From an uncultured Acidobacteriota bacterium (GTDB lineage Bacteria; Acidobacteriota; Polarisedimenticolia; J045): a stretch of DNA of 64,000 nucleotides. Both the position numbers and the translations under genes were made by a program. How positions within the stretch are numbered: the first letter of the stretch is position 1; the number at the start of each line of letters is the position of its first letter. The stretch covers positions 17,941 through 81,940 of the forward strand of contig CAVPDB010000002.1 of NCBI GenBank assembly GCA_963702545.1. Reading direction: 5' to 3'. This document shows positions 1 through 64,000 of the stretch, piece after piece. The notes under the pieces are model-generated. The model was not told the origin of the DNA and ran no database searches. It saw only the letters and a program-made list of their open reading frames with translations.

Positions 1-324
1 ACCGCGCTTGCCGCCGGTCTCGATCGGCTGCACCAGCGTGAGCGTGGTCTGTGCGTCCGCGTAACCCAGCCCGCCGCCGAAGTCCTCGGCCTCCAGCTCC
101 AGCACCGGGTTGGGCAGGGCGCGCGCCTGGAGCGCCGCCCCCTCCGCGGCGCGGACGGCCGCCTGGCGGGCGGCCAGCGCCGGGCTGCGCTCGAGCACGC
201 GGGCGCGGGCTTCGTCGAGCGTCAAGACGCCGGCGGCCAGGGCCGGGAGCGGGAGGCCGGTGAACGAGAGCGCGAACAGCAGGGCGGGCAGGAACGGGAA
301 GGACAGCGGAAACGGGAAACGCAT
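1..324 (-). CDS. Outer-membrane efflux protein, CzcC/TolC (OMF) family, N-terminal part; 3' end lies beyond the window start
   Basis: Minus-strand translation from the ATG at 324..322 reads MRFPFPLSFPFLPALLFALSFTGLPLPALAAGVLTLDEARARVLERSPALAARQAAVRAAEGAALQARALPNPVLELEAEDFGGGLGYADAQTTLTLVQPIETGGKRG. This has a signal peptide plus the typical OMF N-terminal motifs. A GAGGGA SD sits about 7 nt upstream. It is absent from the ORF track only because the window edge cuts it off. Confidence 0.65.
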   Translation of the reverse strand, partial: MRFPFPLSFPFLPALLFALSFTGLPLPALAAGVLTLDEARARVLERSPALAARQAAVRAAEGAALQARALPNPVLELEAEDFGGGLGYADAQTTLTLVQPIETGGKRG

Positions 325-402
325 CGGTGATCCCTCGCGGCGGAAAAGGCACGATCGCGCGTGGCCGTGCGGCCGCGCGCCCATCCGGGGACGAGGGACC
401 GA

Positions 403-786
403 TCAGATCAGGAGCAGGACGGAGGCGAGGGCGGCGTGCTGCTGGGAGCGCGGCGCGCGGTCGAGCGCCGGCCCGTGGACGGCGCCGGCGAGCGGCCGCA
501 TCTCGCGCGGCAGGAGACCGGCCTGCAGCGCGGGGGCGAGCGTCGGCGAGTGCTTGGCGCCGAGCGAGGCGCCGAAGTCGGCGGGCGTGTCGGTGCAGTC
601 GTCGGCGCAGTCGCCCGCCGGGCTGCCCTCGTCGTCATCGTCGCAACACGCCAGGAAGAGCAGCTCGATCCCGGTGTGCCCGCCGGCGACGCAGAGCGTC
701 GCGAACGGCGCGAGCAGCAGCAGACCCGCCGCGGCCAGCAGGGCCGCGAGGCGCTTCGGGAGGGACGGCTGGGCTCGAGGGGTCAA
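403..786 (-). CDS. Small secreted Cys/Asp/His-rich protein (possible periplasmic metal-binding protein) just upstream of the OMF gene
   Basis: 127-aa ORF with a hydrophobic N-terminus (LLLAPFATLCVAGG) followed by CCDDDDEGSPAGDCADDCTD. It lies co-directionally immediately upstream of the CzcC-like gene. I recognise no family. Confidence 0.35.
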   Translation of the reverse strand: MTPRAQPSLPKRLAALLAAAGLLLLAPFATLCVAGGHTGIELLFLACCDDDDEGSPAGDCADDCTDTPADFGASLGAKHSPTLAPALQAGLLPREMRPLAGAVHGPALDRAPRSQQHAALASVLLLI

Positions 787-837
787 GGGCTGGGTCTCCC
801 GGACATGATAGGCCCGGTGGGCCGGGCCGGCACGGGC

Positions 838-2025
838 TCAGGCCCGGAAGAACCGCTCCATCAGCCCGTGCCCCGGATCGACGAGCAGCCCCGTTCGCCG
901 GGCTTCCGCCTCGGTGTAGCGCGTCCCGCCGTTGGGCGCGATCCCGCTCCCCGCGAAGCAGAAGGGGGGCGGCGTCGCGTCGTGGGTCTTCGTGCCGACC
1001 GGCGTCGGGTGGTCGGCGGCGACGAAGACGCGGTGGGGGCCGTGGGCGCGCAGAGCGGCGAGCAGCGGCCCGACGATCGCCTCGTCGATCCGCTCGAGCG
1101 CCCTGACCTTCTCGGCGGCGTCGCCCAGGTGGCCGGCTTCGTCCGCGGCCTCGACGTGGACCACGACCAGGTCGTGGTCGTCGAGCGCGCGCACCGCGGC
1201 CCGCCCCTTGCCGTCGAAGTCGGTGTCGATGTAGCCGGTCGCGCCGGGGACGTGGATCAGCTCCATTCCCATCCCGACCGCCAGGCCGCGCAGGATGTCG
1301 ACGCCGGTGATCAGCGCGCCGCGCACGCCGTGGCGCGCGGCGAACGGCTCGAGCGCGGTCGGCCGCCCCTGGCCCCAGAGCCAGATGTTCGTCGGCGCGT
1401 TCCGCCCTTCGGCGCGCCGTGCGCGCGTGACCGGGTGATCGGCCAGCAGGGCGGCGGCGCGCTGCATCAGGCCGCAGACCCGCTCTGCGCCCGTGCCGTG
1501 CGGCCAGTAGTCCGCGACCGGCTGGTCCGGGATGTCGTGCGGCGGCTGGCAGCGCAGCTCCATCGCCGCGGCGTCGGCCAGCAGCAGCAGGTTGCGGTAC
1601 GAGACGCTGGGGTGGAACTCGCACCCCTCCGCGCCGAACGCGGCGCCGAGGTCGGCCATGATCCGGTCGGCCTCGGGCTGCGTGATGTGGCCGGCGGTGA
1701 AGTCCTTCATCCGGCCGTCCTCGATCGTCACCAGGTTGCAGCGGAAGATCATCTGGTCCGGGCGCGCGCTCAGCCCCTTGGCGGCGGCTTCGATCGGCGC
1801 GCGGCCGGAGTAGAAGCGGTGCGGGTCGTAGCCCATCAGCGAGAGCGTGCCGACGTCGGTGCCGGGGGTGAAGCCCGCGGGGATCGTGACCGCGCAGCCG
1901 AGCTGGCCGGCGGCCGCCACCGCGTCCATGTGGGGGATGCGCGCCGCCTCCAGCGGCGTCCGGCCGTCGAGCTGGGGCAGCGGGAAGTCGGCGGCGCCGT
2001 CGGGGAGGATGATCGCGTACTTCAT
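838..2025 (-). CDS. apgM: 2,3-bisphosphoglycerate-independent phosphoglycerate mutase, archaeal/ApgM type
   Basis: Within ORF 838..2064(-), the internal Met [15 protein letters not shown]... is the conserved ApgM N-terminus; the ATG is at 2025..2023. The metalloenzyme-superfamily motifs run throughout, and the length is right at about 395 aa. Confidence 0.85.
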
Positions 2026-2102: not shown

Positions 2103-2984
2103 GTGGCCGACACCGACGACATCCGGGAAACCAAGAACTATTACCTCGACATCCCCGCGCGGCAGGAGCCCTTCTTCATGAAGGGGTCCGGGGCTCTGGA
2201 CTGGGGGATGCAGAGCCGGCTGGCCCGGGTCTTCCGCAGGGAGAGCGGGCGGACCGTGATGCTGGCGATCGACCACGGCTACTTCCAGGGGCCGACGACC
2301 GGGCTGGAGCGGGTCGACGTCAACATCGTGCCGCTGCTGCCGTTCACCGACGCGCTGATGCTGACGCGCGGCGTGCTGCGCACCACGATCCCGGCGTCGT
2401 ACCCGCGCGGCGTCGTGCTGCGCGCCAGCGGCGGGCCGTCGATCCTGAAGGAGCTGTCCAACGAGCAGCTCGCGGTCGACATCGAGGACGCGATCCGGCT
2501 GGGCGTCTCCGCGATGGCGGTGCAGGTCTACATCGGCGGCGAGTTCGAAACGCAGTCGGTCCACAACATGACGCGGCTGGTGGACCTGGGGAACCGCTAC
2601 GGGATCCCGGTGCTGGGCGTGACGGCGGTCGGCAAGGACCTGGTGCGCGACGCGCGCTACCTGGGGCTGGCCTGCCGGATCTGCGCCGAGCTGGGGGCGC
2701 ACGTCGTCAAGACCTACTTCTGCCCCGAGGGGTTCGAGACGGTCACGGCCTCGTGCCCGGTGCCGATCATCATGGCCGGCGGCAAGAAACTGCCGGAGCT
2801 GGACGCCCTGACGATGGCCTACCGCGCGATCAGCCAGGGGGCGGCCGGCGTCGACATGGGGCGCAACATCTTCCAGTCGGATCACCCGATCGCGATGCTC
2901 AAGGCCGTCGGGCGGGTGGTGCACGAGCAGCTCGCACCGGCCGACGCGTACGAGTTCTTCCGGGAGCAGCGGGCGCGCCCATGA
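2103..2984 (+). CDS. DhnA-type class I aldolase of the LsrF family (3-hydroxy-5-phosphonooxypentane-2,4-dione thiolase-like)
   Basis: The 293-aa ORF aligns along its full length with my recollection of E. coli LsrF: [81 protein letters not shown]. Its stop overlaps the next start as ATGA. Confidence 0.75.
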
Positions 2985-5084
2985 AGAGCCGGTGGGCGGC
3001 GGCGGAGGCCGGAGCGGCCGCGGTCGGCCCGGCGGACAGCGACGCAGCCGCTTCCGTCGCGATCGCGTACGCCAGCCGCCTGCTGGGGGCCGAGCCGTCG
3101 CTCGTGCTGCACGGCGGCGGGAACACGTCGGTCAAGACGACGCTCGCGGACGGGACCGGCACGCCCGTGCCGGCGCTGCTGGTCAAGGCCTCGGGCGTCG
3201 ACCTCGCGACGATCGGGCCGGAGGGGTTCGTGCCGCTCGACATGGGCGCGCTGCTGCGGCTGCGCGCGCTGGCCGAGCTGGACGACCTGGCGATGGTCCA
3301 CGAGCTGCGGCGCGCGCACGCTCTGGCCGGGCTGCGGCGACCCGTCGATCGAGGCGCTGGTCCACGCCTTCCTGCCGGCGCGGGTGGTGCTGCACACCCA
3401 CGCCGACGCGATCCTGGCGCTGACCAACCGCCGCGGCGGCGAGGCGACCGCGCGCGAGGCGCTGGGGGGCGGGGTCCTCGTGCTGCCGTACGTCGAGCCG
3501 GGCTTCCGCCTGGCGAAGGCCGCCGCGAAGCTGGCCGAGAGCGTGCCCGGCGCGCTGGGGATGGTCTGGAGCCGACACGGGCTCGTCACCTGGGGCGACG
3601 ACGAGCGCGAGGCCTACGAGCGGACGATCGAGATCGTGACGCGGGCCGAGGCGTTCCTGGACCGGCGCGCGGTCGCGGTGCCGGTCGGGGCGGCCGCCGC
3701 GGCCGCCGAGCCGGCGACCGCCGCGCGAGTGCAGGAGCTGGCGCCGATCCTCCGCGGCGTGCTGGCGCCCGAGAGCGGCGACGCCGACCGGCCGAAGCAG
3801 CCGATCGTCCTGCGCTCCTTGACCGATCCCGCGGTGCGCGCGTTCGTGGACGCGTCGGGCGCAAGGGCGCTGGCGCTCACGCCGCCGCTCACCTCCGATC
3901 ACCTGATCCGGACCAAGGCGCGGCCGCTGTTCCTGGAGGGCCTGGCCTGGGGCGACGTGGCCCGCCTGCGCGAGCAGGTGGCGGCCTCCGTCGCGGCCTA
4001 CGCGGCCGAGTACGGCGCCTACATCGAGCGCGGTGCGGCGCGGCTGCCGGACAGCATCGTGCCCTTCGACCCGCTGCCGCGCGTCGTGCTGGTGCCCGGC
4101 GTCGGCGCGTTCTGCGTCGGTCGCGACGCCCGGGCCGCGGCGATCGCGGCCGACATCACCGCCCACACGCTGGCGGTGAAGACGCGGGTCGGGGGCGAGT
4201 ACGAGGGGCTCAGCGAAGAGCAGCTGTTCGACATGGAGTACAAGCCGCAGCAGCACGCCAAGCTCGCGCGCCGGCCGGCCCCGCTCGCGGGCGCCGTCGC
4301 GCTGATCACCGGCGCGGCGGGCGCGATCGGCGCGGGCGTGGCGCGCGGCCTGCTCGACGCCGGCTGCGGCGTGGTGATCACGGACCTGCCGGGCGCGGCG
4401 CTGGACGGGCTGGCGGGGGAGCTGCGGCGCGAGTACCCCCACGCGGTTCTCTCTCTGCCACTCGACGTCACGGACGAAGCGTCCGTGGCGCAGGCGTTCG
4501 GCAGCGTCGTGCGCAGCTGGGGCGGCGTCGACCTGGTGGTGATCAACGCGGGGATCGCGCACGTGTCGCCGCTGGCGTCAATGGAGCTGGAGGCGTTCCG
4601 CCGGCTCGAGCGGGTCAACATCGAGGGGACGCTGCTGGTGCTGCGCGAGGCGGCGCGGCTGTTCGAGCAGCAGGGGACCGGTGGCGACGTCGTGCTGGTC
4701 TCGACCAAGAACGTCTTCGCGCCCGGGGCCACCTTCGGCGCCTACAGCGCGACCAAGGCCGCCAGCCACCAGCTGGCGCGGATCGCCAGCCTGGAGCTGG
4801 CCCCGCTCGGCGTGCGGGTCAACATGGTCGCGCCCGACGCGGTCTTCGGCGACGCGTCGCGGCGCTCCGGCCTGTGGGCCGAGGTCGGCCCGGGCCGGAT
4901 GAAGGCCCGCGGCCTGGACGAGGCGGGGCTGGAGGATTACTACCGCCAGCGCAACCTGCTCAAGGCGCGGGTCACGGCCCAGCACGTCGCGCGCGCGGTG
5001 CTCTACTTCGCTACCCGCCAGTCGCCGACCACCGGCGCCACGATCCCGGTCGACGGCGGCCTGCCCGACGCGACGCCGCGCTAG
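2981..5084 (+). CDS. Bifunctional class II aldolase (adducin-head) / short-chain dehydrogenase, RhaD/YuxG (RhaEW)-like; apparent 1-nt frameshift near 3336
   Basis: N-terminal part in frame 2 from the ATG at 2981: [11 protein letters not shown]...[14 protein letters not shown]...[17 protein letters not shown]...[13 protein letters not shown]. From about 3339 the conserved [28 protein letters not shown] continues in frame 0, within ORF 3384..5084. The C-terminal half is a classical SDR ([11 protein letters not shown]...NAG...YSATKAA). Confidence 0.75.
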
Positions 5085-8182: not shown

Positions 8183-10832
8183 ATGGACGAGCCCAGGCGG
8201 GCCGGGTCAGGGCTCGCGGACGACAGCCCTACCGTGTCCTTCGGGGGCGGCGCCGCGATCCCGGCACCGGAGACGTCCGCGCGCCGGTTCCTGCCGGGAA
8301 CCCTGTTCGCCGGCCGCTACCGGATCGTCGAGCTGCTGGGGCAGGGTGCGACCGGCGAGGTCTACCGCGCCGACGACCTGCACGTGGGCCAGCCGGTCGC
8401 GCTGAAGTTCCTGCCGGCCCACCTCGCCGACAGCACGGTGGCGCGCGACCGCGTGCGCAACGAGGTCCGGGTCGCGCGGCAGGTGACGCACCCGAACGTC
8501 TGCCGGGTCTTCGACATCGGCGAGGCCGACGGCCACACCTTCATCTCGATGGAGTACGTCGACGGCGAGGACCTGCGCTCGGTGCTGCGGCGGCTCGGCC
8601 GCCCCTCGCGCGAGAAGGCGCTCGAGATCGCACGGCAGATCTGCGCCGGGCTGGCCGCGGCGCACGAGATCGGCGTCCTGCACCGCGACCTGAAGTCCGC
8701 CAACATCATGATCGACGGCCGGGGACGCGCGCGGATCACCGACTTCGGGCTGGCCGCCTTCGCGCACGAGCGGGAGGGGCAGGGGGTCGCCGGCACGCCG
8801 ACCTACATGGCGCCCGAACTGTTCGACGGCGCGCCGTCCTCGACCCGGACCGACATCTACGCGCTGGGCGCGGTGCTCTACGAGCTGTTCACGGGGCGCG
8901 CCGCTTACCCCGCCGCGAACGTCGCCGAGCTGCGCCGCCTGCAGCTCGCGGGCCCGCCGCCCAGCCCGGCGCAGCTCGTCCCCCAGTTGGATCCCACGGT
9001 CGACGAGCTGATCCTGCGCTGCCTGCACGCCGATCCCAGCGAGCGCCCGCCCTCGGCGCTCGCCGTCGCGGCCGTGCTGCCCGGGCGGCGACCCGGTGGC
9101 GACGGCGCTCGCGGCGGGCGAGACCCCGTCGCCCGAGATGGTCGCGGCGGCGGGGGGAGAGTCGCCGATGCCGCGCCCGCTCGCGCTCGGCATCTTCGGT
9201 GCGATCGCCGCCGGGCTGCTCCTGATCGCCGCGCTGAATTCCCGCGTTCTGCTGCTCGGCGCCGCGCCGCCCGCCAAGCCGCCGATCGTGCTCGCCGACC
9301 ACGCGCGCGAGCTGCTCTCCTCGCTGGGCGCGACGGCGGCGCCCGCCGACGTCTGGTACCGCTACTCGACCTACCCCAGCTATCTCGGTCACGTGGCGAA
9401 GACCGATCCCGCCCCCGACCGCTGGGCGCGGATGATGGGGCGGATGCCGTCCCCGTACGCGTTCCACTACCGCGAGAGCCCGGTGCCGATGGTGCCGCGC
9501 GGCGTGTCGAGCGAGATCTCGTTCCGCGAGCCCCCGCTCACCGCCCCCGGGATGGCCGGCGTCATCACCGACGACCAGGGGCGGCTGCAGATCCTCGAGA
9601 TCGCGCCGCCCGAGCGGGACGCCAGCCCGCGCACCGACGCGGTGCCCGACTACGCCCCGCTCTTTGCCGCGGCCGGGCTCGACCTTGCGGACTTCACCGC
9701 CGCCAGCCCGGAATGGAACCCGACGCTGCCGGCCGACTCGCGCGCGGCGTGGACCGGGCACTACCGCGGACAGCCGGACTGGCCGGTGCGGATCGAGGCG
9801 GGCGGCTACCGCGGCCGCCCGATCTACTTCCAGGTGCTCGAGACCTTCGACACGCCGGTGCGGCTGGGGAAGCAGGAATCCCCGCCGCTGGTGCGGCGCG
9901 CCTCGCAATGGGCGAACGTCCTGCTGCTGGCCGCGATGCTCGTGGTGCCCCCGCTCGTCGCGCGCCGGAACCTCCGGCGCGGGGTCGGGGACCGCAAGGG
10001 GGCGTGGCGGCTGGGGATCGCCGTCGGGCTGCTTCAGCTCGTCCACTGGCTGCTCCGCACCGACCTGGCCGGGGGGGCGATCACCCGGCAGACCGACCTC
10101 TTCCTGGCCCAGCTGGGCCTCGTCCTGCTCTTCGGGGTGGTCAGCGGGCTGATCTACCTCGCGCTCGAGCCCTACGTGAGACGGCACTGGCCGCGCACAC
10201 TGATCTCCTGGACGCGCCTGGTGATGGGGCGGGTGGGCGACCCTCGCGTCTCGCGCGACGTGCTGATCGGCGCGCTGGGCGGCGTGCTGGTGGTCGTCGT
10301 CCAGCGCCTCGAGTGGATCGTCCCCTACTGGCTCGGGCAGGCGCCACCCGTCCCCTACGGGGTCGCCGACGCCGTTCTCGGCGGGGGCCGCAAGGCGCTG
10401 GCGCAGATCGTCTCCGCCGAGTTCCTCGGCGGGCCGCTGTTCGTGCTCTTCGTCCTGACGGCGGCGCAGTTCCTGCTGCGGCGCCGCTGGCTCGCGATCG
10501 CGGTGGCGATGGCCTTCCTGATCCTTCTCGACGGGCACTGGCAGCTCGAAAGCGCGTCGCTCCTCCTGCGCGCGGGGGCGATGGTCGAGGTGCTGCTGGT
10601 CTGGGGGATCATCCTCACCGTGATGCTCCGCTTCGGGCTGCTCGCGCTGGTCTCGACCTTCTTCTTCCTGGTCGTGCTGCAGTCGTGGCCGGTCCTCTTC
10701 GACTCGGCCGCGTGGTTCGCCGGCGCCTCGTGGACGGCGCTGGCGGTGCTTGGGGCGATTGCCGTCATCGCGATGCTCGGGGCGTGCGGCGGCGCGCGGG
10801 CGTGGAAGCGCGCGGCGGTGGGGTGGGGGTAG
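8183..10832 (+). CDS. Ser/Thr protein kinase with C-terminal polytopic membrane domain; apparent 1-nt frameshift near 9080
   Basis: Frame 2 (8183..) gives a Hanks kinase (GQGATGEVYRA, HRDLKSANIM, DFGLA, GTPTYMAPE) ending ...SALAVAAVLPG. Frame 0 (ORF 9096..10832) continues with the family-typical linker ATALAAGETPSPEMVAAAG and more than 8 TM helices. A one-base change in cccgggcggcg at about 9080 joins the two. Confidence 0.75.
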
Positions 10833-13509: not shown

Positions 13510-14980
13510 ATGTCGACGCCGCGGTATCCCTCGCTCTTCCAGATCAACACGCGGGTCCGGCTCTCGGAGCTCACGGTCGATCTGGGACGAAAGGCCACCC
13601 TCGACGACATCCCCGACGCGGAGCTCGACAGCCTGGCCGCGGACGGGTTCGACCTCGTCTGGTTCCTGGGCGTCTGGCAGACCGGCGAGGCGGCCCGGCG
13701 CGTGTCGCGCTCGAAGCCCGATTGGCTCGCCGAGTACCGCCGCGTCCTTCCCGACTTCCGAGAGGAAGACGTCACCGGCTCCTGCTTCGCCGTCCGGGAC
13801 TGCAGGGTGCTCGAGGACTTCGGCGGAGACGAGGCGCTCGCCCGACTGCGCTCTCGTCTGAAGCGCCGGGGCCTGCGCCTGATCCTGGACTTCGTCCCGA
13901 ACCACATGGCCCCGGACCATCCCTGGGCCGCGAAGCACTCGGACTTCTTCGTGCCGGGACGGAGGAGCAGCTCGCCGCCCAGCCCCAGAACTACTGCCGC
14001 GTCGGCGAAGGGCCCGGGCGCGCGCATCCTGGCGTACGGGCGCGACCCCTACTTCGACGGCTGGCCCGACACGCTGCAGCTCAACTACGGCAACCCTGCC
14101 CTCCAGCAGGCGATGCTCGGCGAGCTGCAGCGCATCGCGCACCAGTGCGACGGTGTCCGCTGCGACATGGCGATGCTCGTCCTGCCGGAGGTCTTCGAGA
14201 GGACCTGGCGGATCCCCGCCCCACTGTTCTGGCCGCGGGCGACGGAGGCCGTCCGCGCCGAGGTCCCGGGCTTCCTCTTCCTCGCCGAGGTCTACTGGGA
14301 CCTGGAGTGGACCCTCCAGCAGCAGGGGTTCGACTACACCTACGACAAGCGGCTCTACGATCGTCTGGAAGAGGGGCACGCCCGCCAGGCCCGCGAACAT
14401 CTTCTCGCGGGCCTCGATTTCCAGGACCACCTCGCCCGCTTCCTGGAGAACCACGACGAGCCGCGGGCTGCCGCCACGTTCGCGCCCGAGAAGCACCGGG
14501 CCGCCGCCGTCCTGACGTTCCTGACACCAGGCCTTCGCTTCTTCCATCAGGGTCAGCGCGAGGGCAGGCGGGTGCGCATCCCCGTGCATCTCGGCCGCGG
14601 GCCGGACGAGTCACCCGAGGCGGGGATCGCCGCCTTCTACGACGGTCTCCTCGAGTGTCTGAAGGACCCCGCTTTCCGGGACGGACGCTGGCAGCTCCTC
14701 GAGTGCCGTCCCGCCTGGGACGGCAACGGGTCGTGGGACTCCTTCGTGGCCTTCTCCTGGGTCGGCCCGCACGACGAGCGCCGTCTCGTCGCCGTCAACT
14801 ACGCCGAGCACCCGGGCCAGTGCTACGTCGGCAATGCCGTGGTGCGACCTCGACGGACGCACGTGGCGCCTCCAGGACCTGACCGGTCCCGCCGTCTACG
14901 ACCGCGCGGGAAGCGACCTCGCCGCGGCAGGGGCTCTACCTCGACCTGCCCGCGTGGGGCTACCAGGTGTTCCTGTCTAG
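13510..14980 (+). pseudogene. Alpha-amylase family (GH13-like) protein gene, disrupted by at least 4 frame shifts and lacking an in-frame stop
   Basis: Frame 1: MSTPRYPSLFQINTRV...LDFVPNHMAPDHPWAAKHSDFFV. Frame 0: GTEEQLAAQPQNYCRVGEGPG. Frame 1 again: ARILAYGRDPYFDGWPDTLQLNYGNP...ENHDEPRAAATF...CYV. Frame 2: CDLDGRTWRLQDLTGPAVYDRAGSDLAAAG. Frame 0: LYLDLPAWGYQVFLS. The shifts fall at about 13962, 14018, 14840 and 14925. Confidence 0.6.
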
Positions 14981-16082: not shown

Positions 16083-16476
16083 GATGTAGAGATTCCCCTC
16101 GAACTCGACGGCCTGCAGCCCCGCCCGCGGCGACCACTCCGCACGCTCGACGACACGCGTCCATCCCGATCCGGTCGAGAACGAAGCGTTCCGGCCCGCG
16201 GAACTCCCGCGCGGAGTCCCGGCGTAGGACGGATCGGTCGCAACAGCTGCGAAACGTGATCGCCATCGCGGCCAATACTGGACGGTATGTCATCTCTTCT
16301 TCTCCATCTCCCGCATCGACCGGCCCGGAAGCGGGCGCCTGATCATGGCGAGTCGCGGAGTATACGTCCCGAGCATGCTCTCGCCCATTCGAGCCGGTGC
16401 TGTCCTTCGCCAAGAGTGCGCCACGACGGCGCGTAAGGGAGGTCACGAAGTGACCGACTGAACGCCGCCATGCTGC

Positions 16477-17193: not shown

Positions 17194-17272
17194 CGGTCGG
17201 CCGCTCCCCCTTCCTGCAGGCCCGCGGCTACGCGCTCCGCCTCATAATCCGCGGCTTGAATCGCTTATCTGC
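17194..17272. repeat. 79-bp direct repeat, copy 1 (2 mismatches to copy 2)
   Basis: cggtcggccgctcccccttcctgcaggcccgcggctacgcgctccgcctcatAatccgcggcttgaatcgctTatctgc. It is re-found at 19534..19612, exactly 2340 bp away. It contains the palindromes CCTGCAGG and CCGCGG (x2). Confidence 0.8.
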
Positions 17273-48508: not shown

Positions 48509-49951
48509 TCCTCGAGCGCGAGGCCGGCACGCTCGTCGTCCTGACGGGTGAGCTGGACGACGGCACGCACACGGCACTGCGCCGCGCTCAGGCGCTGGTG
48601 TGCCGCTGGCCCGGTCCGGTCGCGGTCGTCGCGCTGGCCGGGCGAGTCGATCCGCAGGACGTCGCGGAGCTGTCGCGCCGCGCCCAGGTGATCGAAGCCG
48701 GGCGCGTGCTGGGCAGCTCGTTCGCGCACGGCGCGCCGGCGGGGGCCGCAGCGGCCGTAGCGGCCGTGGCGGCCGCGGCGGCGCTGCTGCGGCTGGCGAC
48801 CGGCGGCTCGCCGCTGGCGCGGATCTACGCGCGGCTGGGGCCGCAGGAGTGGCCGCTGCTGCAGGCCTTCGCCGATGTCGCCGCCGGCGTGCCGGTCGAC
48901 CTGGAGCTCGGGCCGGAGGCCGGCGTGCCGGAGATCGCACCGCTGTGGACCGCGGCCGACGCGCTGGTGGTGGCCGACATGGACCGCCGCTACCCGCTCT
49001 CCGCCGGCTCGCCCGCGCTGCCGGTGCGCGTGGTGCCGGACGGCGACGGCGAGGAGGCGCTCGGCGCGCTGGCCGAGCTGCCGATCTTCGGCGGTGACGA
49101 GCGCGTCTCCGTGGTCGTCCCGGTCCGCGGGAACGCCGCGCTCGCGGTGCGGCTGGCCGGCAGCGTGATCGAGCACACGGCGGGCCTGCTCGAGGTGATC
49201 CTGGTCGACGACGCCTCGCCCGCCCGCTCGCTGGCGCTGCTGGAGCGGCTGGCGATCGAGGACATCCGGGTGCGGCTGCTGGTCAACCGCGCACCGCATG
49301 GCCTGGCGGCCAGCGCCAACCGTGGCCTGGCGGCGGCGCGCGGCGACCTGGTCGCGCTGCTCGACGCCGGCGCCGTCGTCACGCCCGACTGGTCGGCCCG
49401 CCTCGCGGCGCACCGCGGCCAGCCGCGCTGCGGCGCGATCGGTCCGCTGTTCAATCGCGCGGCCTGGCCGCAGCAGCTCGCGGGCGTGACCTACGACGAG
49501 ACGACGCTCACCGGGCTCGCGCCGTTCGCCGAGGCGCTGTCGCGCGGGCGAAGCGGGCAGGCGACGCCGTGCACTCGGCTCTCCGGGCGCTGCCTTCTGA
49601 TCCCGCGCCCGGCGCTGCGCCGCATCGGCGGGCTCGACCCGCGCTTCTTCCCGGCCAGCTTCGAGGACGACGACTGGTCCGCGCGGCTGCATTCGGCCGG
49701 GCTGGCGGCATACCGCGCGGACGACGTCTTCGTCCACCACGACAGCGAGGCGGGTTTCGGGCTGGAGCCGGACGCGCGGGCCGAGGCGGCCGCGACCGGC
49801 TGGCGCCGCTTCAAGGACAAGTGGGGGCTTCCGCCGGAGCGCGACGCGCGCGACGGCTGGCAGCCGTCCGAGGTCTCCGGTGTCTACGACCGGGCGCGCC
49901 ACTTCATCGCGCCGTGGCTGGCGCTGGAACCGGTGGGGAGCGGACGGGCTA
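48505..49951 (+). CDS. Glycosyltransferase family 2 protein with about 190-aa N-terminal extension (3' end uncertain)
   Basis: Frame of ORF 48049..50469, starting at GTG 48505 (VILEREAGTLVVL...). The GT2 core is RVSVVVPVRGN...LEVILVDDASP...DLVALLDAG...FEDDDWSARL. Past about 49950 the frame is antisense to the convergent membrane gene, so the real stop is unclear. Confidence 0.6.
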
Positions 49952-52435
49952 GGCCGCCGGGCTCCGCCACCAGCGCGCGATCGCGGCGCCGGCCGCGAGG
50001 TAGCCGGCGGCGGCCAGCAGCGTCACGCCCGAGATCCCGACGTCGAGCGCGAGCAGCGCGGCGAGGATCGGCCCGAGCACCGAGCCGACGCCGTTGGCGG
50101 CCCAGGCCAGCCCGGTCGACGCCCCCTCTCCGCGCGCCGCGAGCCGCGCCAGCGCGGCCGGGAACGGCACCCCCACCGCCAGCCCGAGCGGCACGACCAG
50201 CGCGATCGCCAGCGCGATCCGCGCCGCGTCGCCGAGCGCGAGCCCGGCGCGCAGCACCGCCGGGAGGCCGAGCGCGTAGAGCGCGACCAGCGCCGCGACC
50301 GCCGCCAGCATCGGCCACGCGCTGGACTGCGCGGCCGCGCGCGGACCCGCCAGCAGGCTTCCCGCGCCGGCCGCCGCGAGCAGCGTGGCCAGCACGACCG
50401 CCGCGGCCAGCACCGGGCTGCCCAGGAAGAGCGTCACGCGCTGCATCAGCGCGATCTCGAGCAGCATGAAGGCGACGCCCAGCGCGGCGAAGTAGCCGGC
50501 GAGCGCGCGGGAGCCGGCCGCGGGCGGGCCGCCCGCATCGCCCGCTTCGCCCGCAGCGCCCGCTTCGCCCGCAGCGCCCGTCTGGCCCGCGCTCGCTCCC
50601 CTCCGCGCGCCGCCGCGCAGCGCCAGCGCGAGCAGCGGGAGCGACAGCACCAGCGCCTGGAGCAGCACCGCGACCAGCACCAGGCGGCCGGAGAGGATCA
50701 GGGGGTTCTCCTTCCAGCCCGCGCCGAAGAGCTGCAGGTTCGACCAGCGCCCGAACTGGAAGAAGAACGGCCGGTCGTCGGTGGTCGGCGAGATGTCGAA
50801 CGGGTAGCTCGCCACGAAGGCCCGGCGGTCGGGCGCGGACAGGTAGGCTGCGTACGCGGTCGCGGCCGGCCGCTCGGGCTCGTAGACGACGAAGAACCCG
50901 CGCTCGGCGGCCAGTGCGCGGGCGCGGGCGATCTCCTCGGGGGTGAAGGGGCTCTTCTTCACGACGAGGTTCGCCATCCGCCCGAGGCCGAAGACGATCA
51001 GGTGGCGCGACGGGTCGGTCGCGCCCTGCCGCCGCAGCGCCTCGTCGACGACGGCGACCAGCCGCAGCGACTCGCGCGGCGGGTTCCAGTCCCAGCGCGT
51101 CACGGTCAGCGCGCCGTCGGGGGCGAGGCGGGCGAGGTTGTCGCCCAGCGCCTCGACCGTGTAGAGGTAGCCCTCGGACAGGCTGTAGGCGCCCGATGCG
51201 CTGGCCGCCCAGGTGTCGATCAGCGAGAGCTGCACCAGGTCGAAGGTGTCCTTCGAGCGCCGGGTGAACGCGCGCCCCTCTGCCTTGTGCAGCGTCACGC
51301 CGGGACGCTCGAAGGCGCGGCCGCCGCGCGCGGCGAGCGGGCCGCGCGCGAAGTCGATCACCGCGCCGTTGATCTCGACCGCGTCGACGGTGCGCGCGCC
51401 GTGGTGCAGCGCGGTCAGGACGTCGACCCCGCCACCGGCGCCGATGATGAGAACGCGCTGCGGGTGGAGCAGCTGGTAGGCCGCGGAGCCGAGCGTCCAG
51501 TCGAGCAGCGCCATCTCGGCCAGCGGGGTGTCGCCGAACTGCACGACCGGCGTGGCCGCGTCGCCGTCGAGCAGCATGCGTGTCTCGCCCGGGTGCGGCA
51601 TCGGCGCGCGGGAGTTGATGGTCCAGGCTACCGGCGGCGTGTTCTCCACGATGTCCACGCGGGCGAGCGGGTTCCAGCGCGTGGCCGTGACCCGCGGCGC
51701 CTGGGCGCCGGGCGGCCGAGCCAGGAGCCAGCCGAGGGTCTTGCCCTCGCCGGGCCGGATGTCGAGGAGAGCCGGGGCGAAGGGGATCGCGGCCAGCAGG
51801 GCCAGCGCGGCCGCCAGCGCCGGCGCCGCCGCGCGCAGCGGGCTGCCGGCGCCGGCGACACCGGGGTCCCCGGCGCTCCCGGCGCGCAGGATCACGGCCC
51901 CGAGGCAGGCGACCGCCGCCACGAGCAGCACCACCCCCTCGGCGCCGAGCGGCTCCAGCAGGGCCATCACCGCCACCGCACCGGTGGCCGCTCCCAGCAG
52001 ATCGCTGCCGTAGACGGCCGGCGCGCTCGCCGCGAACCCCTTGAGCAGCGTGCCCACGGCGAGGCCGGCCGCGGTCAGCGGCAGCAGCAGGGCGACGTAG
52101 TACGCAAAGAGCAGCAGCCACTGCCCGGCACCCTCGCCGAGCCGCGTCGGATCGAGCGGCAGGCGCCCGATCAGTGCGACCGCGGCGATGGCGAGCCCCG
52201 CGAACGCCAGGGCGTACTGCGCGGCGCGGCGCGGCGCCGGCTCGGAGGCGCGCGGGACGAGCTGCAGCACCACGCCGCTGACCGCCACGCCGAGCAGCGC
52301 GACGCTGATCACCATGAAGGCGAAGTGGTGCCAGATCGAGAACGAGAAGATCCGCAGCAGGACGATCTCGAACGCGAGGATCGCCCCGGCGAGCAGGGCG
52401 ATCGCGATCCGGACGGACGCGTTGGCGGGGCGCAT
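49949..52435 (-). CDS. Polytopic membrane protein with central spermidine-synthase-like (aminopropyltransferase) domain
   Basis: Within ORF 49949..52516(-). The start was chosen at MRPANASVRIAIALLAG (ATG 52435); a TTG at 52516 is also possible. It has many TM helices on both sides of a PABS-like domain (QRVLIIGAGGGVDVLTALHHGARTVDAVEINGAVIDFARG...DLVQLSLIDTWAASASGAYSLSEGYLYT). Confidence 0.7.
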   Translation of the reverse strand: MRPANASVRIAIALLAGAILAFEIVLLRIFSFSIWHHFAFMVISVALLGVAVSGVVLQLVPRASEPAPRRAAQYALAFAGLAIAAVALIGRLPLDPTRLGEGAGQWLLLFAYYVALLLPLTAAGLAVGTLLKGFAASAPAVYGSDLLGAATGAVAVMALLEPLGAEGVVLLVAAVACLGAVILRAGSAGDPGVAGAGSPLRAAAPALAAALALLAAIPFAPALLDIRPGEGKTLGWLLARPPGAQAPRVTATRWNPLARVDIVENTPPVAWTINSRAPMPHPGETRMLLDGDAATPVVQFGDTPLAEMALLDWTLGSAAYQLLHPQRVLIIGAGGGVDVLTALHHGARTVDAVEINGAVIDFARGPLAARGGRAFERPGVTLHKAEGRAFTRRSKDTFDLVQLSLIDTWAASASGAYSLSEGYLYTVEALGDNLARLAPDGALTVTRWDWNPPRESLRLVAVVDEALRRQGATDPSRHLIVFGLGRMANLVVKKSPFTPEEIARARALAAERGFFVVYEPERPAATAYAAYLSAPDRRAFVASYPFDISPTTDDRPFFFQFGRWSNLQLFGAGWKENPLILSGRLVLVAVLLQALVLSLPLLALALRGGARRGASAGQTGAAGEAGAAGEAGDAGGPPAAGSRALAGYFAALGVAFMLLEIALMQRVTLFLGSPVLAAAVVLATLLAAAGAGSLLAGPRAAAQSSAWPMLAAVAALVALYALGLPAVLRAGLALGDAARIALAIALVVPLGLAVGVPFPAALARLAARGEGASTGLAWAANGVGSVLGPILAALLALDVGISGVTLLAAAGYLAAGAAIARWWRSPAA

Positions 52436-53186: not shown

Positions 53187-56100
53187 TCAGTCCCGCTCCA
53201 CCCGCCCCGCGGACAGGAACCACAGCTCGGCCCGCGGCGGCGGGTCGGGGAAGAGGCCCCGCAGCGACTCGACGTAGCGGGCGAGCTGCGGGCGGTAGCG
53301 CTCGACGGCCGCGTCGCGCGCGGCGGTGTAGTCCGGCCCGGCGGGGTCGGGGAGCGAGTCGGTCTTGTAGTCGGCGACGACCAGCGCACCGTCCTCGGCG
53401 CGGTAGAGCAGGTCGATCGTGCCGACCCACGCGCCGGTCGGCTGGTCGTCGGCGTCGCCGTCGGGGGCGGCGAGCAGCGGGACCTCGCGTCCCAGCACGC
53501 GGTCGCGCAGGGTGGCCAGGGCGTCGAGCGCGCCGTTCCCCGCCATCCGGTCGAGCAGCGCCTCGGCCTCGGCGCGGGCGCCGTCGCGGAGTTCGGGAGA
53601 GAGATCGGGCGGCAGGTACCCCGCCAGGCGCCCGCGCTGGCGTACGCGCTCGGCCGCCGGGTCGGCGGCCAGGTCCCAGGCCTCGAGCGCGCGGTGGATC
53701 GCGGTGCCGACGGCGAGGCGCTCGTCGCGCCGCGTGTCGTCGGAACCCGCGGCGGGCCCCGCCGGCAGGAGGGGCGGCCCGGCCTCCGGCTCGTCCTCTC
53801 CGTCGCGCGCGGCGTGGCCTGCAGCGTGGGCCGCGCCGGAGGGCGTCGCCGTGGCGGGGCGGCGCATGCGCGCGCCGGCGTCCCGTCGCGCGTCGGCGAG
53901 CAGCGCCAGGTCGCGCACGGCGGCGGCCTCGGACGCGGCGGACGCCTCCGCGCGCGCGGCCGCGGCGGGCGGGCGCAGCGCCGCCGGGTCGCCCGCGGGC
54001 GCGAGGCGCCACGGGACGCCGTGCGCGTCGGTCGCGGCGCCGCCCGCCTCTACCATCGCGGCCAGCGCGTCCCCGCCTTCACGCCGCGCCAGCAGCGCCA
54101 GGTGCGACCCGGCGGGCGCGGCCCGGCCGGTCGCCGGGTGCGGCCAGGCGCCGGCGAGCACCATGCTCACCCGCGCGCGCGTCGCCGCCACGTAGAGCGT
54201 CCGGACCGACTCGGCCGCCGCGATCTCGGCCTCCTCCCGCTCCACCGCGTGGAAGCCCAGCCCGGGGACGCCGAGCAGGCGGACATCCCAGCCGCCGCCG
54301 TCGCGGGGCGCGACGCGGTTGTCGTGGGATCGACTGCCGCGGGACCGGCTGCCTCCCGTGCCGTGGTGCAGGTCGACGACGAAGACGTGATCGAAGTCCA
54401 GCCCCTTGGCCTTGTGGATCGTCAGCACGCGCACCGCGTCGAGCGTGTCGTCTCCCGGCGCCCCCTCGCGCTCCTCGCGCCCCTCGGCGACGCCGCCGCG
54501 CAACTCGCGCAGGACCCCCTGGATCCCTTCCGCGCCGGAGAGCCCCTCCAGCAGGCGGCGCAGGAAACGCTCCATGTTCGCCAGGCGGTGCGGTCCCAGG
54601 TAGCGCGCCGCGGCGAACTCCTCGGCCAGGACGAGGGCCGCGAGCGTCTCGACGAACCGGTCCGCCGCGTCCCCGGACAGGGACCGGCGCAGCTCGGCGA
54701 GCGCGCGCACGGCGGCCTTCGCGGCCTGCGGCCAGTCCGCGACCCGCTCGATGCCGGGGATCGCGGCCCGCTCGACCTCGCGCGCGACGGTGTCGATCGC
54801 GGCGTCGAGGCGCGCGAAGGCGGCGTCGTCGGGGCGGTCGAGCCGCCGCAGCTCCTCCACCGCCCCGCTGCTCCAGAGGCCGGGCAGCGCGGCGTCCGGC
54901 ACGCCGCCCCACGGCGAGCGCAGGAAGGTGACCAGCGCCAGCTCGTCGAGCGGGTCGGCGATCGCGCGGACGAGCGCCCCGGCGTCGATGACCTCGCGCC
55001 GCCGGAAGTACTCGCGCTCGCGCTCGACGACGAACGGCAGCCCGCGCGCGCGCAGCGCCGCGAGGTAGGGCTCCAGCCCGGAGGTGGCGCGGAGCAGGAT
55101 CGCGATCCGGCCCAGCGAGGCGCCCTCCCGGCGCAGCGCGTCGATCTCCGCCGCGACGGCGTCGGCCTCGACCTCGCGCGCCTGCCGGGCTCGCGTCGGC
55201 TCGCCCGCGTCGAAGCGGTCGCGCGCCCAGGACGCCCAGTACTCCACCGGGGGGCGTGCGCCCTCCGGCTCCGGCGGCCGATCCGGGGCGAGTTCCTGGA
55301 ACGGCGCCTGCCGGTCGCCGTCCTCGACCAGCAGCGGGCGCGCGATCCGCGTCACCTCGTCCAGCACGGCGGGCTGCGAGCGGAAGTTCACCACCAGCGG
55401 GAGGCGCTCGCCCCCGGCCTGCTCGACCCGGCGCGCGAACTCCCGGTACGCCGCGAGGCTCGCGTGGCGCCAGCCGTAGATCGACTGCTTCGGGTCGCCG
55501 ACCAGCATCAGCCCGGGACGCTCCCCGGGCGGGCCCTCCAGCGCGAGCCGCCGGACGATCTCGCACTGCAGGCGGTCGGTGTCCTGGAACTCGTCCACGA
55601 CGAGCTGGTCGATCTCGCGGCGCACCGCGGCGGCGACCGCGTCGTTGCGGAGCAGCACGGCCGCGTCGCGGATCAGCGCAGCGAAGGGGGAGATGCCGCG
55701 GCAGCGCAGTGCCTTCTCGACCTCCGCGAGCAGCGGGCCGAGCACCGCGCGGGCCGCGGCGAGGACGTCGGGATCGACCTGGCGCAGCGACTGCAGCAGG
55801 CCGTGCAGCGCGCCCGCCGCCGGGGCCAGCTCGCGGGCGACGGGCGCGAGCACGGCGGATTCGGTCTCGCCGTCCGACGGGTCGAGAGCGCTCCACCCCG
55901 CGAGCCGCTTCAGCAGCTTGTCGTCGAAGTGGTCGGACGCCAGGTCCACGAGCTGCCCGGCCGTCTCCGCGCCCGCGGCGGCCGCCGCGACCGCGTCGAG
56001 CGCGTCGCGGAGGCGCGGTCCCGCCTTGAGCAGTCGCGCCGCGGCGCCGGCGAAGCGGCTCGCGGACGAGATCGGCGATCTCCGCGGCGCGGCAGCCGAG

Positions 56101-56838
56101 TTCCTGCGCGACGGCGCGTGCGCGCGCGTCGGACAGCGGGTCGTCGTCGAGGGCCTCGGGCGGCACGGCCTCGGTCGCGAGCTCCTCGAGCGCCGCCGCG
56201 AGCGCCGCCGGCCCGTGCCCCTGCGCGGCGAGCTCGATCCACCGCTCGTCGCCCGCGGGCCCGAGCGCCTCGGGCAGGCGGCGCGCCATCACCTCCTCGA
56301 CCACGCCGGCGAGGAGCGTCCCCTCGGCGTCGACCTCGAAGGCCGGGTGCAGTCCCGCTTCGAGCGCCCGCGCCGCGAGCAGCCGGCGGCAGAAGGCGTG
56401 GATCGTCGCGACCTCGAGCCGGTCCTGCACGGCGAGCAGCGCCGCGGCGCGCTCGCGCCGGCGGTCGTCCGGCCCGGGGAGGTCGGCGAGCGCCAGTCCG
56501 ACCGCGTCCACGCCGCGGTGCACGCAGGCGAGCATCCGCGCGATCCGCTCCGCCATCTCGGCCGCCGCGCGGTCGGTGAAGGTGATCGCGACGACGCGCT
56601 CGGCCGTGCGGCGCGCGATGCGGTCCGGGGCGTCCGCGCCGGCGGAGGCGCCGACCGCCGCCGCCGCCCGATCCCAGCCCGGCCCGAGCAGCCAGGCGAC
56701 GATCCGCGACGCGACGACCGTCGTCTTGCCGGTGCCGGCCCCGGCGTCGAGCAGCAGCGGGCGCTCGAATTCGGTGCGCGCGACGCGGCGGGAGCGCTCG
56801 TCGTCCGCGCGGGCCGCGGCCAGTTCGGCGGGCGTCAC
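53187..56838 (-). CDS. addA: ATP-dependent helicase/nuclease subunit A (AddA; UvrD-like helicase + C-terminal PD-(D/E)xK nuclease); apparent 1-nt frameshift near 56055
   Basis: GTG start at 56838 overlapping the addB stop as GTGA. N-terminus VTPAELAAARADDERS...LLDAGAGTGKTTVVASRIV...ITFTDRAAAEM... in the frame of ORF 54079..59334. From about 56050 it continues in ORF 53187..55949 (RFAGAAARLLKAGPRLRDAL...VVDEFQDTD, VGDPKQSIYGWR, LTIHKAKGLDFDHVFV, LYVAATRA, nuclease ADYKTD). Confidence 0.8.
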
Positions 56839-62957: not shown

Positions 62958-63610
62958 CGGGCGCGGTCTCCAGGGCGCGGGATCGGCCCCGGCATCATGG
63001 GGAGCGGGGCCGGGGAGGGCAAGATGGGGCCGGGGGCGGGGGCGGGGCCACGCGGGGAGGAGCGGGAGCGGGGCGGGGGAGCGGCGGGGCGAGGCGGAAG
63101 GCAGGGGCGGGGCGGGGCGCGGTGGTGGGCCGCGGGGCGGGTGGAGCAGGCCGGGCGGGGCGCAATGGAAGCCAGGCGGCCGACGCGCGGGGGATGGGGC
63201 CCCGAGCTTGTGGCGAGCGCGGGCCGCGCGGTCGGCCGACGCCGAGCTCGGGGCGCAACGATTCGAAACGGAGTCGGGTCGAATGCACTTCGGCCGACAA
63301 CGGAGCCGCATTGTGTGCACCTTTTCGGCGGCTCAAGGTCCATCGCAGCGCGATCCGGTACGCGGCGCAGCGCCTAAGTCGTTGATCCGCGCGCGCGCAG
63401 CGAGTTCTCCCGGGCTGTAGGGTGCACATGACCGGGCTCCGTCCGAGGCGATGTGCATTCGACCGGGCTCTGTGAGGGGGGCGGCGCTTCTGCGACGGGC
63501 CGGGAGCCTCGCGGCGGAGTTGCGGGCAACCGCCGCGCACCACGCTGCACCGGCCGCTCTTCACCTCGCGCTCGGCCGCGCCGGCACGCCGCCGCCGATC
63601 TCCGTCCCCG

Positions 63611-63666
63611 CCCCACGCCGTCCCCGCCCCGCGCACGCCGCCCCACGCCGTCCCCGCCCCGCGCAC
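63611..63666. repeat. Tandem repeat, 2 units (26-bp unit, 30-bp period) of a C-rich CCCCACGCCGTCCCCGCCCCGCGCAC motif
   Basis: Read directly at 63611-63636 and 63641-63666. It is embedded in a longer poly-C/G tract just upstream of tatD. Confidence 0.7.
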
Positions 63667-63732
63667 CACTCCCGACCCCACCCCCGTCCCGCGCACTCCC
63701 ACTCTACCCCACCCCACCCTACAATCTTCGCG

Positions 63733-64000
63733 TGCTGATCGACGCTCACGCGCACTTGGCCGACGCGGCCTTCGCGGAGGATCTGCCGGAGGTGCTGGCC
63801 GCCGCGCGCGCGGCGGGGGTGGCGCGGATCGTCGCGGTGGGGGAGACGCTGGAGGACGCGCAGCGGCTGATCGCGCTGGCGGAGCGGCACGCGGAGATCG
63901 CCCCCGCGGCCGGGCTCTACCCGACGCACCTGGAGTCCGGACGCGCTCGAGGCGATGGAGGCCTTCGTGCGCGCGCACCGCGACCGGCTGGTCGCCGTCG
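63733..64000 (+). CDS. TatD-family hydrolase, 5' part (continues beyond window end); probable frameshift near 63945
   Basis: GTG at 63733: VLIDAHAHLADAAFAEDLPEVLAAARAAGVARIVAVGETLEDAQRLIALAERHAEIAPAAGLYPTHLES. Then DALEAMEAFVRAHRDRLVAV appears in the +1 frame. A TACAAT -10-like hexamer sits about 12 nt upstream. Confidence 0.6.

Follow-up and report, generated by a model that had tools for sequence, protein, structure and literature searches.

Frame breaks in a 64,000-nt stretch of an uncultured Acidobacteriota genome as very likely errors of the assembled consensus

The frame breaks that interrupt conserved genes in a 64,000-nt stretch of DNA (the window, a portion of a 118-kb contig from an uncultured high-GC Acidobacteriota metagenome) are very likely errors of the assembled consensus and not mutations of the organism, with the exception of those in the RT gene of a degenerate group II intron. 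The best-named homologues of the genes in the window carry the label Vicinamibacteria. This reading is favored because the lesions are private to the window, no decay is seen downstream of them, selection in the affected genes appears normal, the indel spectrum is not a natural one, and core and accessory genes are hit alike. Sequencing reads would be expected to contradict the consensus at these positions. The lesion rate in the consensus is about one wrong ±1 base per 5 to 9 kb, mostly an extra base, and approximately 1 in 6 genes of the deposited window is fragmented.

In a Viterbi segmentation of the window by codon usage, the reading frame changes within a strand, at a distance from any stop codon, at positions 3336, 9084, 13954/13996, 16721, 37934, 56056, and 63937. 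The exact lesion bases, at 3317, 9079, 16251, 37939, 56054, and 63935, were fixed by alignment to close relatives. Every frame break listed in the initial annotation was found to be present, no more than 20 nt from where it had been placed. That annotation referred to at least ten affected genes, although its list comprised eight; ten are reached only with the addition of an in-frame TAG codon in the glutamate dehydrogenase gene (gdh) and a probable stop loss in a GT2 glycosyltransferase gene, both absent from that list. The affected features are as follows.

2981..5084, plus strand: RhaD-type class II aldolase/SDR fusion gene; extra C at 3317, GCGCGCG[C]ACG, frame shifted
8183..10832, plus strand: Ser/Thr kinase gene with a C-terminal membrane region; extra G at 9079, GTGCT[G]CCCGGG
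13510..14980, plus strand: GH13 alpha-amylase-family gene; several ±1 lesions
15003..16293, minus strand: Kelch-repeat protein gene; extra base at 16251, plus-strand GCTGC[G]AAACG
16486..17441, plus strand: degenerate group II intron; D1-D4 RNA piece at 16486-16604 and a truncated RT ORF
29559..30809, minus strand: gdh; in-frame TAG at 30141-30143
36631..38296, minus strand: nuoG; extra base at 37939, plus-strand TCGA[C]GGCC
48505..49952, plus strand: GT2 glycosyltransferase gene; probable stop loss at ∼49936-49950
53187..56838, minus strand: addA, UvrD-type helicase and PD-(D/E)XK nuclease; extra base at 56054, plus-strand GGCGA[A]GCGG, mRNA CT[T]C
63732..64000 (cut by the window end), plus strand: tatD; extra G at 63935, CTGGA[G]TCCGG

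Outside the intron, 12 indels were tallied (ten firm and two probable), all of them ±1; nine are insertions and ∼3 are deletions. The TAG codon in gdh, a stop codon rather than an indel, is the only exception in type. Core genes (nuoG, addA, gdh, and tatD) and accessory ones (the GH13, Kelch, and kinase genes) are struck alike, as had been pointed out in the initial annotation. Several other Viterbi switches were rejected as lesions. Those at 5088-5806 and 52473-53184 are ordinary gene boundaries in VapB/VapC (PIN) pairs, the one at 12973-13380 marks a distinct SemiSWEET gene with its own stop, those at 25.1 to 25.8 kb belong to small separate genes matching relative L008, and those at 1-2175 reflect three separate genes.

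In each of the six genes resolved to the base (RhaD/SDR, kinase, Kelch, nuoG, addA, and tatD), the window carries one surplus base. In the RhaD/SDR fusion, the Pfam Aldolase_II domain is divided over two frames (HMM positions 2-54 and 66-181), and removal of the extra C yields a stop-free ORF of 700 aa. The gene from relative L011, with 91% amino acid identity, is intact at 700 codons, and neither L011 nor L012 has the extra C. The DNA relatives put this break at 3317, within GCGCGCG[C]ACG, and not at a CCGGG motif near 3336 where it had been placed before. The rebuilt kinase and the intact protein P0314, both of 882 aa, share 97% identity; the extra G at 9079 is missing from the L007 kinase gene. 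A paralogous kinase from L005 was dropped as a guide to the C-terminal frame, its match being restricted to the kinase domain. L005 also encodes an intact TatD_DNase of 256 aa, without the extra G. In addA, the extra base is missing from both L005 and L035, whose intact products comprise 1227 and 1228 aa, respectively. Intact nuoG genes are carried by or listed for seven relatives (L001 to L004, L036, L037, and a 310-kb contig), with 554 aa shown in six of them; the alignment of the window with L004 (97.2% identity) has a single gap in 5,183 bp, which is the nuoG insertion. The insertion in the Kelch gene severs the first 13 codons, so that tblastn coverage is limited to residues 14-429. The Pfam Kelch hits are present, the restored ORF is stop-free at 429 aa, and the gene from L006 (98.7% nucleotide identity) has no extra base at 16251.

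The relatives used in these comparisons share 90.6 to 98.7% nucleotide identity with the window and cover 53.7 kb of it. The initial annotation had proposed a comparison with orthologues; this comparison showed that all six base-resolved genes are intact in every covering relative (seven for nuoG, two each for addA and RhaD/SDR, and one each for the kinase, Kelch, and tatD genes) and that no relative carries the extra base. A further relative, the Logan contig L040 (91.6% identity), has different neighbor genes and covers none of the lesions. At 1.3 to 9% divergence, these relatives leave room for private recent mutations.

The rival explanation of genuine recent mutation, by which one-base insertions and a nonsense codon have truly disabled these genes, for example in a mutator or a declining population caught shortly after the events, is very unlikely. 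It can draw on the presence of the lesions in the deposited sequence, in which the depositor's own gene calling yields a 387-aa piece of NuoG (P0003), on the likeness of the gdh nonsense codon and the dense GH13 cluster to pseudogene marks, and on the RT breaks common to L006, which show real decay at that locus. However, dN/dS remains low past the breaks, at 0.10 to 0.42, similarly to the upstream halves and to intact neighboring genes. The respective upstream and downstream values are 0.13 and 0.17 for the kinase gene, 0.31 and 0.42 for addA (with 0.34 in addB), and 0.15 and 0.10 for gdh, while the part of nuoG downstream of the break shows 0.11. The codon-usage path stays in the shifted frame up to the normal stop, with a strong GC3/codon signal on both sides. 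Synonymous and nonsynonymous substitutions specific to the window number 33 and 16, compared to 49 and 20 or 205 and 95 on the branches of the relatives; selection in the window lineage is normal. The natural indels that separate these genomes are multiples of three within genes, keeping the reading frame, and 1-bp indels are intergenic. Against this background, +1 insertions outside repeats would make an unusual natural spectrum, every relative is intact, and the joint loss of nuoG, addA, gdh, and tatD within a few percent divergence or less is implausible. The usual marks of pseudogenes (selection that has relaxed, lesions of various types and sizes, and an eroded codon bias) were not found in the genes of the window other than the intron RT. 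It is most improbable that a natural Vicinamibacteria-like population has very recently gained real +1 insertions outside repeats together with a nonsense codon, in genes for respiratory complex I, recombination repair, glutamate dehydrogenase, and other functions. Real insertions would suggest an unusual mutator process of the frameshift type, or a lineage in which genome decay has just begun.

Two of the lesions had not been recorded before. The TAG in gdh occupies codon 223 of 416, within the GFGNAG[S] motif. The same codon in L008 and L010 is TCA (Ser), a two-base difference, and the remainder of the gene is 97.8% identical and in one frame. The change from TCA to TAG is not a simple indel. 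In the GT2 gene, translations show a frame that remains open to position 50469, inside a convergent gene, with a TAG at 49950-49952 one frame off. Full-length homologues of 460 to 485 aa stop 2 to 8 residues past query residue 477 (nt 49935), and the GT2 gene has probably suffered a 1-base deletion within its last ∼5 codons, as judged from translations and protein homologues for this 3' stretch, which lies outside the coverage of the DNA relatives.

The GH13 gene stands apart in the density of its lesions, four or five in 1.05 kb versus approximately 1 per 7 to 9 kb elsewhere, which requires that the consensus be poor locally or the decay real. Three-frame translation and tblastn, by which the protein falls in three frames, place lesions at ∼13955 (−1, GTGCC-GGG), ∼14020 (+1, CCCGGGC), ∼14835 (+1, GGC[A]ATG), and ∼14928 (+1, GCG[G]CAG). 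A further −1 at ∼14975 is probable because the TAG at 14978-14980 is put out of frame. A close DNA relative was not found for this gene, and these positions are good to a few nucleotides only. The gene lies, along with the intron, in a strain-variable island at 10.9 to 21.5 kb. In a mixed case, the isolated insertions would be artifacts and the GH13 gene in this island a real pseudogene; this combination is rather doubtful. It would account for the lesion density and fits an island that is missing in L007 and a neighboring intron RT that is truly degenerate. However, the lesions in this gene are without exception ±1, it keeps the catalytic motifs DGVRCDMA, AEVYWD, and FLENHDEPR, and the rebuilt protein of 492 aa is 86 to 87% identical to 493-aa homologues across 100% of its own length. 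Moreover, the L006 contig terminates at exactly 15004, adjoining the GH13 gene, which points to a region that is hard to assemble and would also account for a poor local consensus.

The group II intron that follows the Kelch gene is a different matter. Its RNA piece matches Rfam family RF01999 with 89.7 bits, and the match of the RT ORF to the RVT_1 HMM (positions 37-190) lies within a single frame. Translations put the RT frame breaks at ∼16620 and in a C7 run at 16721. The alignment with L006 has no gap at either break, and the L006 gene calls there are fragments as well. The RT breaks probably represent genuine decay because they are common to this 98.7% relative; the initial annotation had pooled them with the assembly errors.

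The surroundings of the lesions bear on how the errors could have arisen. A sequencing platform that errs systematically at homopolymers or a methylated motif (CCGGG/CCCGGG or CTAG) appears unlikely as the cause. At five of the six exact insertion sites, the added base differs from both its neighbors and does not extend a homopolymer; these five bases stand alone (run length 1), and the sixth belongs to a run of 2. Ten sites were compared with G/C runs of 3 or more: none is located in such a run and four are found within 3 nt of one, which at a background of 31% is no enrichment (P = 0.39); the breaks had earlier been described as falling mostly in short G/C runs. An association with CCGGG/CCCGG, also suggested in the initial annotation, proved marginal: three of the ten sites are within 3 nt of such a motif compared to a background of 7.9% (P = 0.04, post hoc), two of these three are 65 nt apart in the same gene, and only 3 of the 524 copies in the window are affected. 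No motif common to the lesion contexts was found, nor is there at the lesion sites a long homopolymer or short tandem repeat of the kind that marks phase-variable contingency loci. Platform error does find some support in non-coding DNA and the RT pseudogene, where four homopolymers of the window are shorter by 1 bp than in relatives (C4 versus C5 at 43016, G3 versus G4 at 23493, G6 versus G7 at 16982, and G3 versus G4 at 52439), and in three anomalies that touch CTAG, namely the TAG in gdh and the stops of the GH13 and GT2 genes. CTAG was nevertheless dropped as a candidate for an error-prone modified motif: its 13 copies in the window mostly mark stop codons, and at least 5 of them are identical in relatives.

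The earlier proposal of assembly error as opposed to pseudogenes is well supported, if indirectly, by the private lesions, the absence of relaxed selection downstream, the normal substitution spectrum, and lesions that are nearly all ±1 in core and accessory genes alike, whereas the mechanism offered with it, miscalls at homopolymers or CCGGG motifs, agrees poorly with 9 insertions among 12 indels, 5 of 6 exact sites outside homopolymers, and G/C runs that are not enriched.

Consensus errors of another kind are suggested by the variation among relatives. At the nuoG site, two haplotypes occur among the relatives, GTCGAGGCCTGG and GTCGTCGGCTGG, as against GTCGACGGCCTGG in the window. At the addA site, L005 has the codon CTC and L035 the codon TTT, where CTTC is found in the window. 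In both genes, the extra base coincides exactly with a position at which the relatives have two alternative alleles, suggesting that the consensus errs where strains vary. All six exact insertions adjoin a codon third position with a different base, and in five of the six the pair is synonymous (P = 0.03 and 0.06, respectively), a marginal result at a null rate of 0.44 to 0.55. Noisy long reads at modest depth, or a mix of closely related strains, could produce a consensus with ±1 errors. Where co-assembled strains differ at a position, misaligned reads might leave both alleles in tandem; alternatively, one half of a multi-base strain difference might be applied, resulting in a one-base insertion. 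We infer both the long-read origin of the assembly and strain mixture as the sub-mechanism. Long reads are hinted at by the 118-kb size of the metagenome contig and by the name form of the sister contig at 98.7% identity, contig_75615, a style associated with long-read assemblers.

Programmed ribosomal frameshifting or other recoding that restores the proteins has a negligible probability. The full coding quality in both halves of every gene and the single-base offset between the coding halves of one protein are what such a process would leave. Programmed frameshift sites, such as those in prfB, dnaX, and IS elements, are conserved among orthologues and have defined shift-prone motifs. In the window, by contrast, the shift is not conserved, given that orthologues at 91 to 99% identity read in frame and lack an extra base; the contexts are unrelated from site to site, with no common shift-prone motif, and ten genes would each need signals of their own. 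Decaying genomes, such as those of Mycobacterium leprae and recent symbionts, show relaxed selection, an eroded codon bias, and lesions that vary in size and are biased toward deletions. The window resembles them in that frameshifts and a stop codon break many of its genes, core genes included. Unlike in such genomes, its lesions are ±1 and dominated by insertions, with downstream dN/dS values of 0.1 to 0.4.

Consensus errors, the favored reading, have precedent. Indel frameshifts are known in long-read assemblies and metagenome-assembled genomes (MAGs) (PMC9262707; PMC12007338); they can be measured with IDEEL and corrected with proovframe or Kastor (PMC9262707; PMC12007338; bioRxiv 10.1101/2021.08.23.457338). 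The lesions of the window are similar to such errors in being ±1 and private to one assembly, with full protein similarity on both sides of each break, and their density of approximately 1 per 5 to 9 kb is possible in a long-read MAG of modest coverage. Typical nanopore errors include more deletions than insertions and cluster in homopolymers (PMC12007338). The insertion excess in the window, approximately 3:1, and the weak link to homopolymers, most sites being outside them, differ from that picture (PMC12007338; PMC9262707). Another parallel is the collapsed assembly of Trypanosoma brucei Lister 427, in which reads are misaligned because of allelic variants close by, with indel errors that truncate ORFs as the result (PMC8445201). 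The window versions of nuoG and addA look like one allele with a base added from the other; in contrast to the diploid T. brucei, the errors of the window would stem from a mixed population of bacteria in a metagenome, as deduced from relatives and with marginal statistics.

The spectrum, mostly of non-homopolymer insertions, some of them at alternative-allele sites, is a useful diagnostic and suggests strain mixture rather than homopolymer miscalling, and polishing focused on homopolymers would not mend errors of this origin. The frame breaks outside the intron matter as a data-quality warning and are very likely not a feature of the organism's biology. Unless it is polished or analyzed with frameshift-aware tools, this MAG will yield wrong gene calls and metabolic reconstructions, as well as wrong pseudogene counts and estimates of completeness.

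Because spurious ORFs are abundant at the G+C content of the 64-kb window (67 to 80%), its coding structure was analyzed with a codon-usage model, trained on long confident ORFs, and a Viterbi segmentation across six frames. Most of the same-strand frame changes occur a few bases from the stop codon of the upstream gene and are ordinary gene boundaries. Those located away from stops (at 3336, 9084, 13954/13996, 16721, 37934, 56056, and 63937) agree with the one-base frame breaks that the initial annotation had listed in conserved genes. Homologues bear such names as Acidobacteria, Acidobacteriota, and Vicinamibacteria MAG. A 92-nt "tRNA-???" predicted by ARAGORN at 1004 to 1095 is almost certainly spurious, having a two-base anticodon and lying inside a phosphoglycerate mutase-like gene.

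Judging from sequence comparison, these frame breaks are very probably assembly artefacts: leaving aside the intron remnant described below, they are private to this assembly, and the genes are intact in every close relative. Six insertions could be resolved to the base, and removal of that single base restores a stop-free ORF in all six genes.

3317, RhaD-type class II aldolase/SDR fusion gene: extra base dividing the Aldolase_II domain between frames; position fixed by the related contigs L011 and L012
9079, kinase gene: extra base, lacking in the related contig L007
16251, Kelch gene: extra base, lacking in the related contig L006 (98.7% identity)
37939, nuoG: one extra base, TCGA[C]GGCC, from the relatives' alignment and intact homologues
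56054, addA: extra base; intact in the related contigs L005 (1,227 aa) and L035 (1,228 aa)
63935, tatD: extra base; the L005 gene is intact (256 aa)

The listed frame breaks themselves are confirmed; the one in the aldolase fusion gene had been placed 19 nt downstream of 3317. The rebuilt kinase (882 aa) is 97% identical to an intact homologue of the same length, and the rebuilt NuoG (554 aa) is 92% and 79% identical to intact proteins that also have 554 aa. The nuoG insertion is the single gap across 5,183 bp of alignment with L004 (97.2% identity); against L003 (95.5%, 15.3 kb), the other genic indels are all in-frame and 1-bp indels are only intergenic. This gene is also intact in L001, L002, L036, and L037.

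Two further lesions had been missed.

30141 to 30143, glutamate dehydrogenase gene (gdh): in-frame TAG at codon 223 of 416, within GFGNAG[S]
from 48505, GT2 glycosyltransferase gene: frame open to 50469, deep inside a convergent gene

The gdh codon is TCA (Ser) in two relatives, a two-base difference rather than an indel; over the rest of the gene, a single frame is kept at 97.8% identity. Full-length GT2 homologues terminate 2 to 8 residues past nt 49935; a TAG at 49950 to 49952, overlapping the CTA stop codon that ends the convergent spermine synthase-like gene (CTAG at 49949), is one frame off the GT2 coding frame, and the gene probably contains a 1-base deletion within its last few codons. 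Not counting the intron, ∼13 lesions are spread over nine genes and comprise nine insertions, approximately three deletions, and one stop codon.

Genuine mutation would require the simultaneous loss of complex I, AddAB repair, glutamate dehydrogenase, and TatD. The dN/dS ratios upstream and downstream of the breaks are 0.04 and 0.11 for nuoG, 0.13 and 0.17 for the kinase, 0.31 and 0.42 for addA (0.34 for its intact neighbor addB), and 0.15 and 0.10 for gdh, so that the downstream values are on a par with those of the upstream halves and intact neighbors. In nuoF-K, lineage-specific substitutions polarized with L002 as the outgroup have synonymous-to-nonsynonymous counts of 33:16 in the window, 49:20 in L003, and 205:95 in L002; by these counts, selection in the window lineage is normal, and no substitution error is detectable among them. 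Natural indels between the genomes compared keep the frame in genes, with 1-bp ones being intergenic, a rule broken by the window's extra bases. Among the isolated 1-bp events listed for the 53.7 kb overlapped by relatives, eight are insertions in the window, of which six have run length 1, one has run length 2, and one could be either, against only two equivalents at run length 1 on the relatives' side. Privacy, dN/dS, substitutions, the indel frame rule, and the core-gene losses thus consistently, if indirectly, support an artefact. The reading of the breaks as assembly error rather than pseudogenes is very probable, albeit with a mechanism different from the one proposed initially.

The GH13 gene was compared by tblastn with 493-aa homologues; no close DNA relative of it was found.

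about 13955, 14020, 14835, and 14928, GH13 gene: −1, +1, +1, and +1, from three-frame translation and tblastn
10900 to 21550, island: SLT/SBP protein, SemiSWEET, GH13, Kelch, intron remnant, 666-aa ORF, and PD40 protein

The rebuilt protein is 86 to 87% identical to these homologues over its full length; a fifth lesion is implied by the expected TAG (14978 to 14980), which does not fall in the reading frame. Lesions are far denser in this gene than elsewhere. GH13 sits in an island (10.9 to 21.5 kb) missing from L007, in which the kinase gene directly adjoins lepA in place of this ∼10.7-kb block, and the L006 contig terminates within the island at 15004, directly beside GH13. A real GH13 pseudogene appears unlikely; the preferred reading is a locally poor or mixed consensus.

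16486 to 17441, degenerate group II intron: Rfam RF01999 (D1-D4) at 16486 to 16604, followed by a truncated reverse transcriptase (RT) ORF
17283 to 19283, minus strand: 666-aa ORF with no Pfam match
17194 to 17272 and 19534 to 19612: 79-nt direct repeat, 97% identical, flanking the 666-aa ORF

The RT ORF covers RVT_1 positions 37 to 190 in a single frame, and no match to D5/D6 was found at this locus. Its frame breaks, at about 16620 and in the C7 run at 16721, are common to L006 and therefore probably genuine, a likely exception to the artefact reading. The 79-nt repeat extends over the 3′ portion of the RT ORF, and the 666-aa ORF region resembles an insertion into the intron accompanied by duplication of a flank.

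The suggested location of the breaks mostly in short G/C runs was not borne out: none of the 10 sites is inside a G/C run of ≥3, and 4 are within 3 nt of one, compared with 31% of the window (P = 0.39). Nor was a link to CCGGG/CCCGG confirmed, with 3 of 10 sites within 3 nt against a 7.9% background (P = 0.04) for a motif picked post hoc that has 524 copies in the window, two of the three matches being 65 nt apart in GH13. The dominant event is an inserted base unlike both its neighbors (five of the six base-resolved cases). Five window homopolymers, all outside intact genes, in intergenic DNA and the RT pseudogene, are one base shorter than in relatives (43016, C4/C5; 23493, G3/G4; 16982, G6/G7; 52439, G3/G4; 30891, G4/G5). 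These differences may reflect natural variation or else another class of error, of the homopolymer type. The RT ORF is continuous with the window's G6 at 16982 and broken by the G7 of L006. CTAG is strongly depleted in the window (13 copies versus ∼159 expected from base composition), and its copies lie mostly at TAG or CTA stop codons.

Indel frameshifts are well documented in long-read assemblies and MAGs (PMC9262707; PMC12007338), but the insertion excess and weak homopolymer link seen here are unlike the typical nanopore profile in these papers. At the nuoG site, relatives have two haplotypes, GTCGAGGCCTGG and GTCGTCGGCTGG, and the window's GTCGACGGCCTGG equals the first plus the C of the second; similarly, an addA codon is CTC in L005, TTT in L035, and CTTC in the window. 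Each of the six exact insertions lies next to a third codon position with a different base (null rate, 0.55; P = 0.03), and five form synonymous pairs (null rate, 0.44; P = 0.06), a pattern that is only suggestive of a strain mixture. Strain haplotypes may have been collapsed into one consensus, in which nearby allelic variants would produce indel errors. The lesion pattern resembles this failure mode, in which such variants displace read alignment (PMC8445201).

Other features were also observed.

5085 to 5789 and 52459 to 53186: VapB/VapC pairs (RHH or VapB antitoxin and PIN toxin)
24470 to 24925: YkuD (L,D-transpeptidase) ORF
34700 to 42300 (7304 to 14877 in L003): nuo cluster, in the order A, C, D, E, F, G, H, J, K, L and onward

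The VapB/VapC pairs are small strain-specific insertions, missing at the corresponding places in L011 (first pair) and in L005 and L035 (second pair). The YkuD ORF has only 151 aa (HMM positions 3 to 57 of 146), its L006 orthologue has 345 aa, and ∼600 bp of L006 (3340 to 3943) are without a counterpart, which would indicate an internal deletion or assembly collapse. No nuoB (Oxidored_q6) or nuoI (4Fe-4S) gene separates A from C or H from J, either in the window or in the gene tables of the relatives.

By exact matching, the proteins of the window belong to a single 118,286-bp contig in NCBI and ENA. The NuoG gene call in the deposit covers only 387 aa, a fragment with 100% identity to the window; therefore, the lesions are present in the public record. 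Apart from those of the intron, the frame breaks very probably represent no biological feature, and their value is that of a quality warning.
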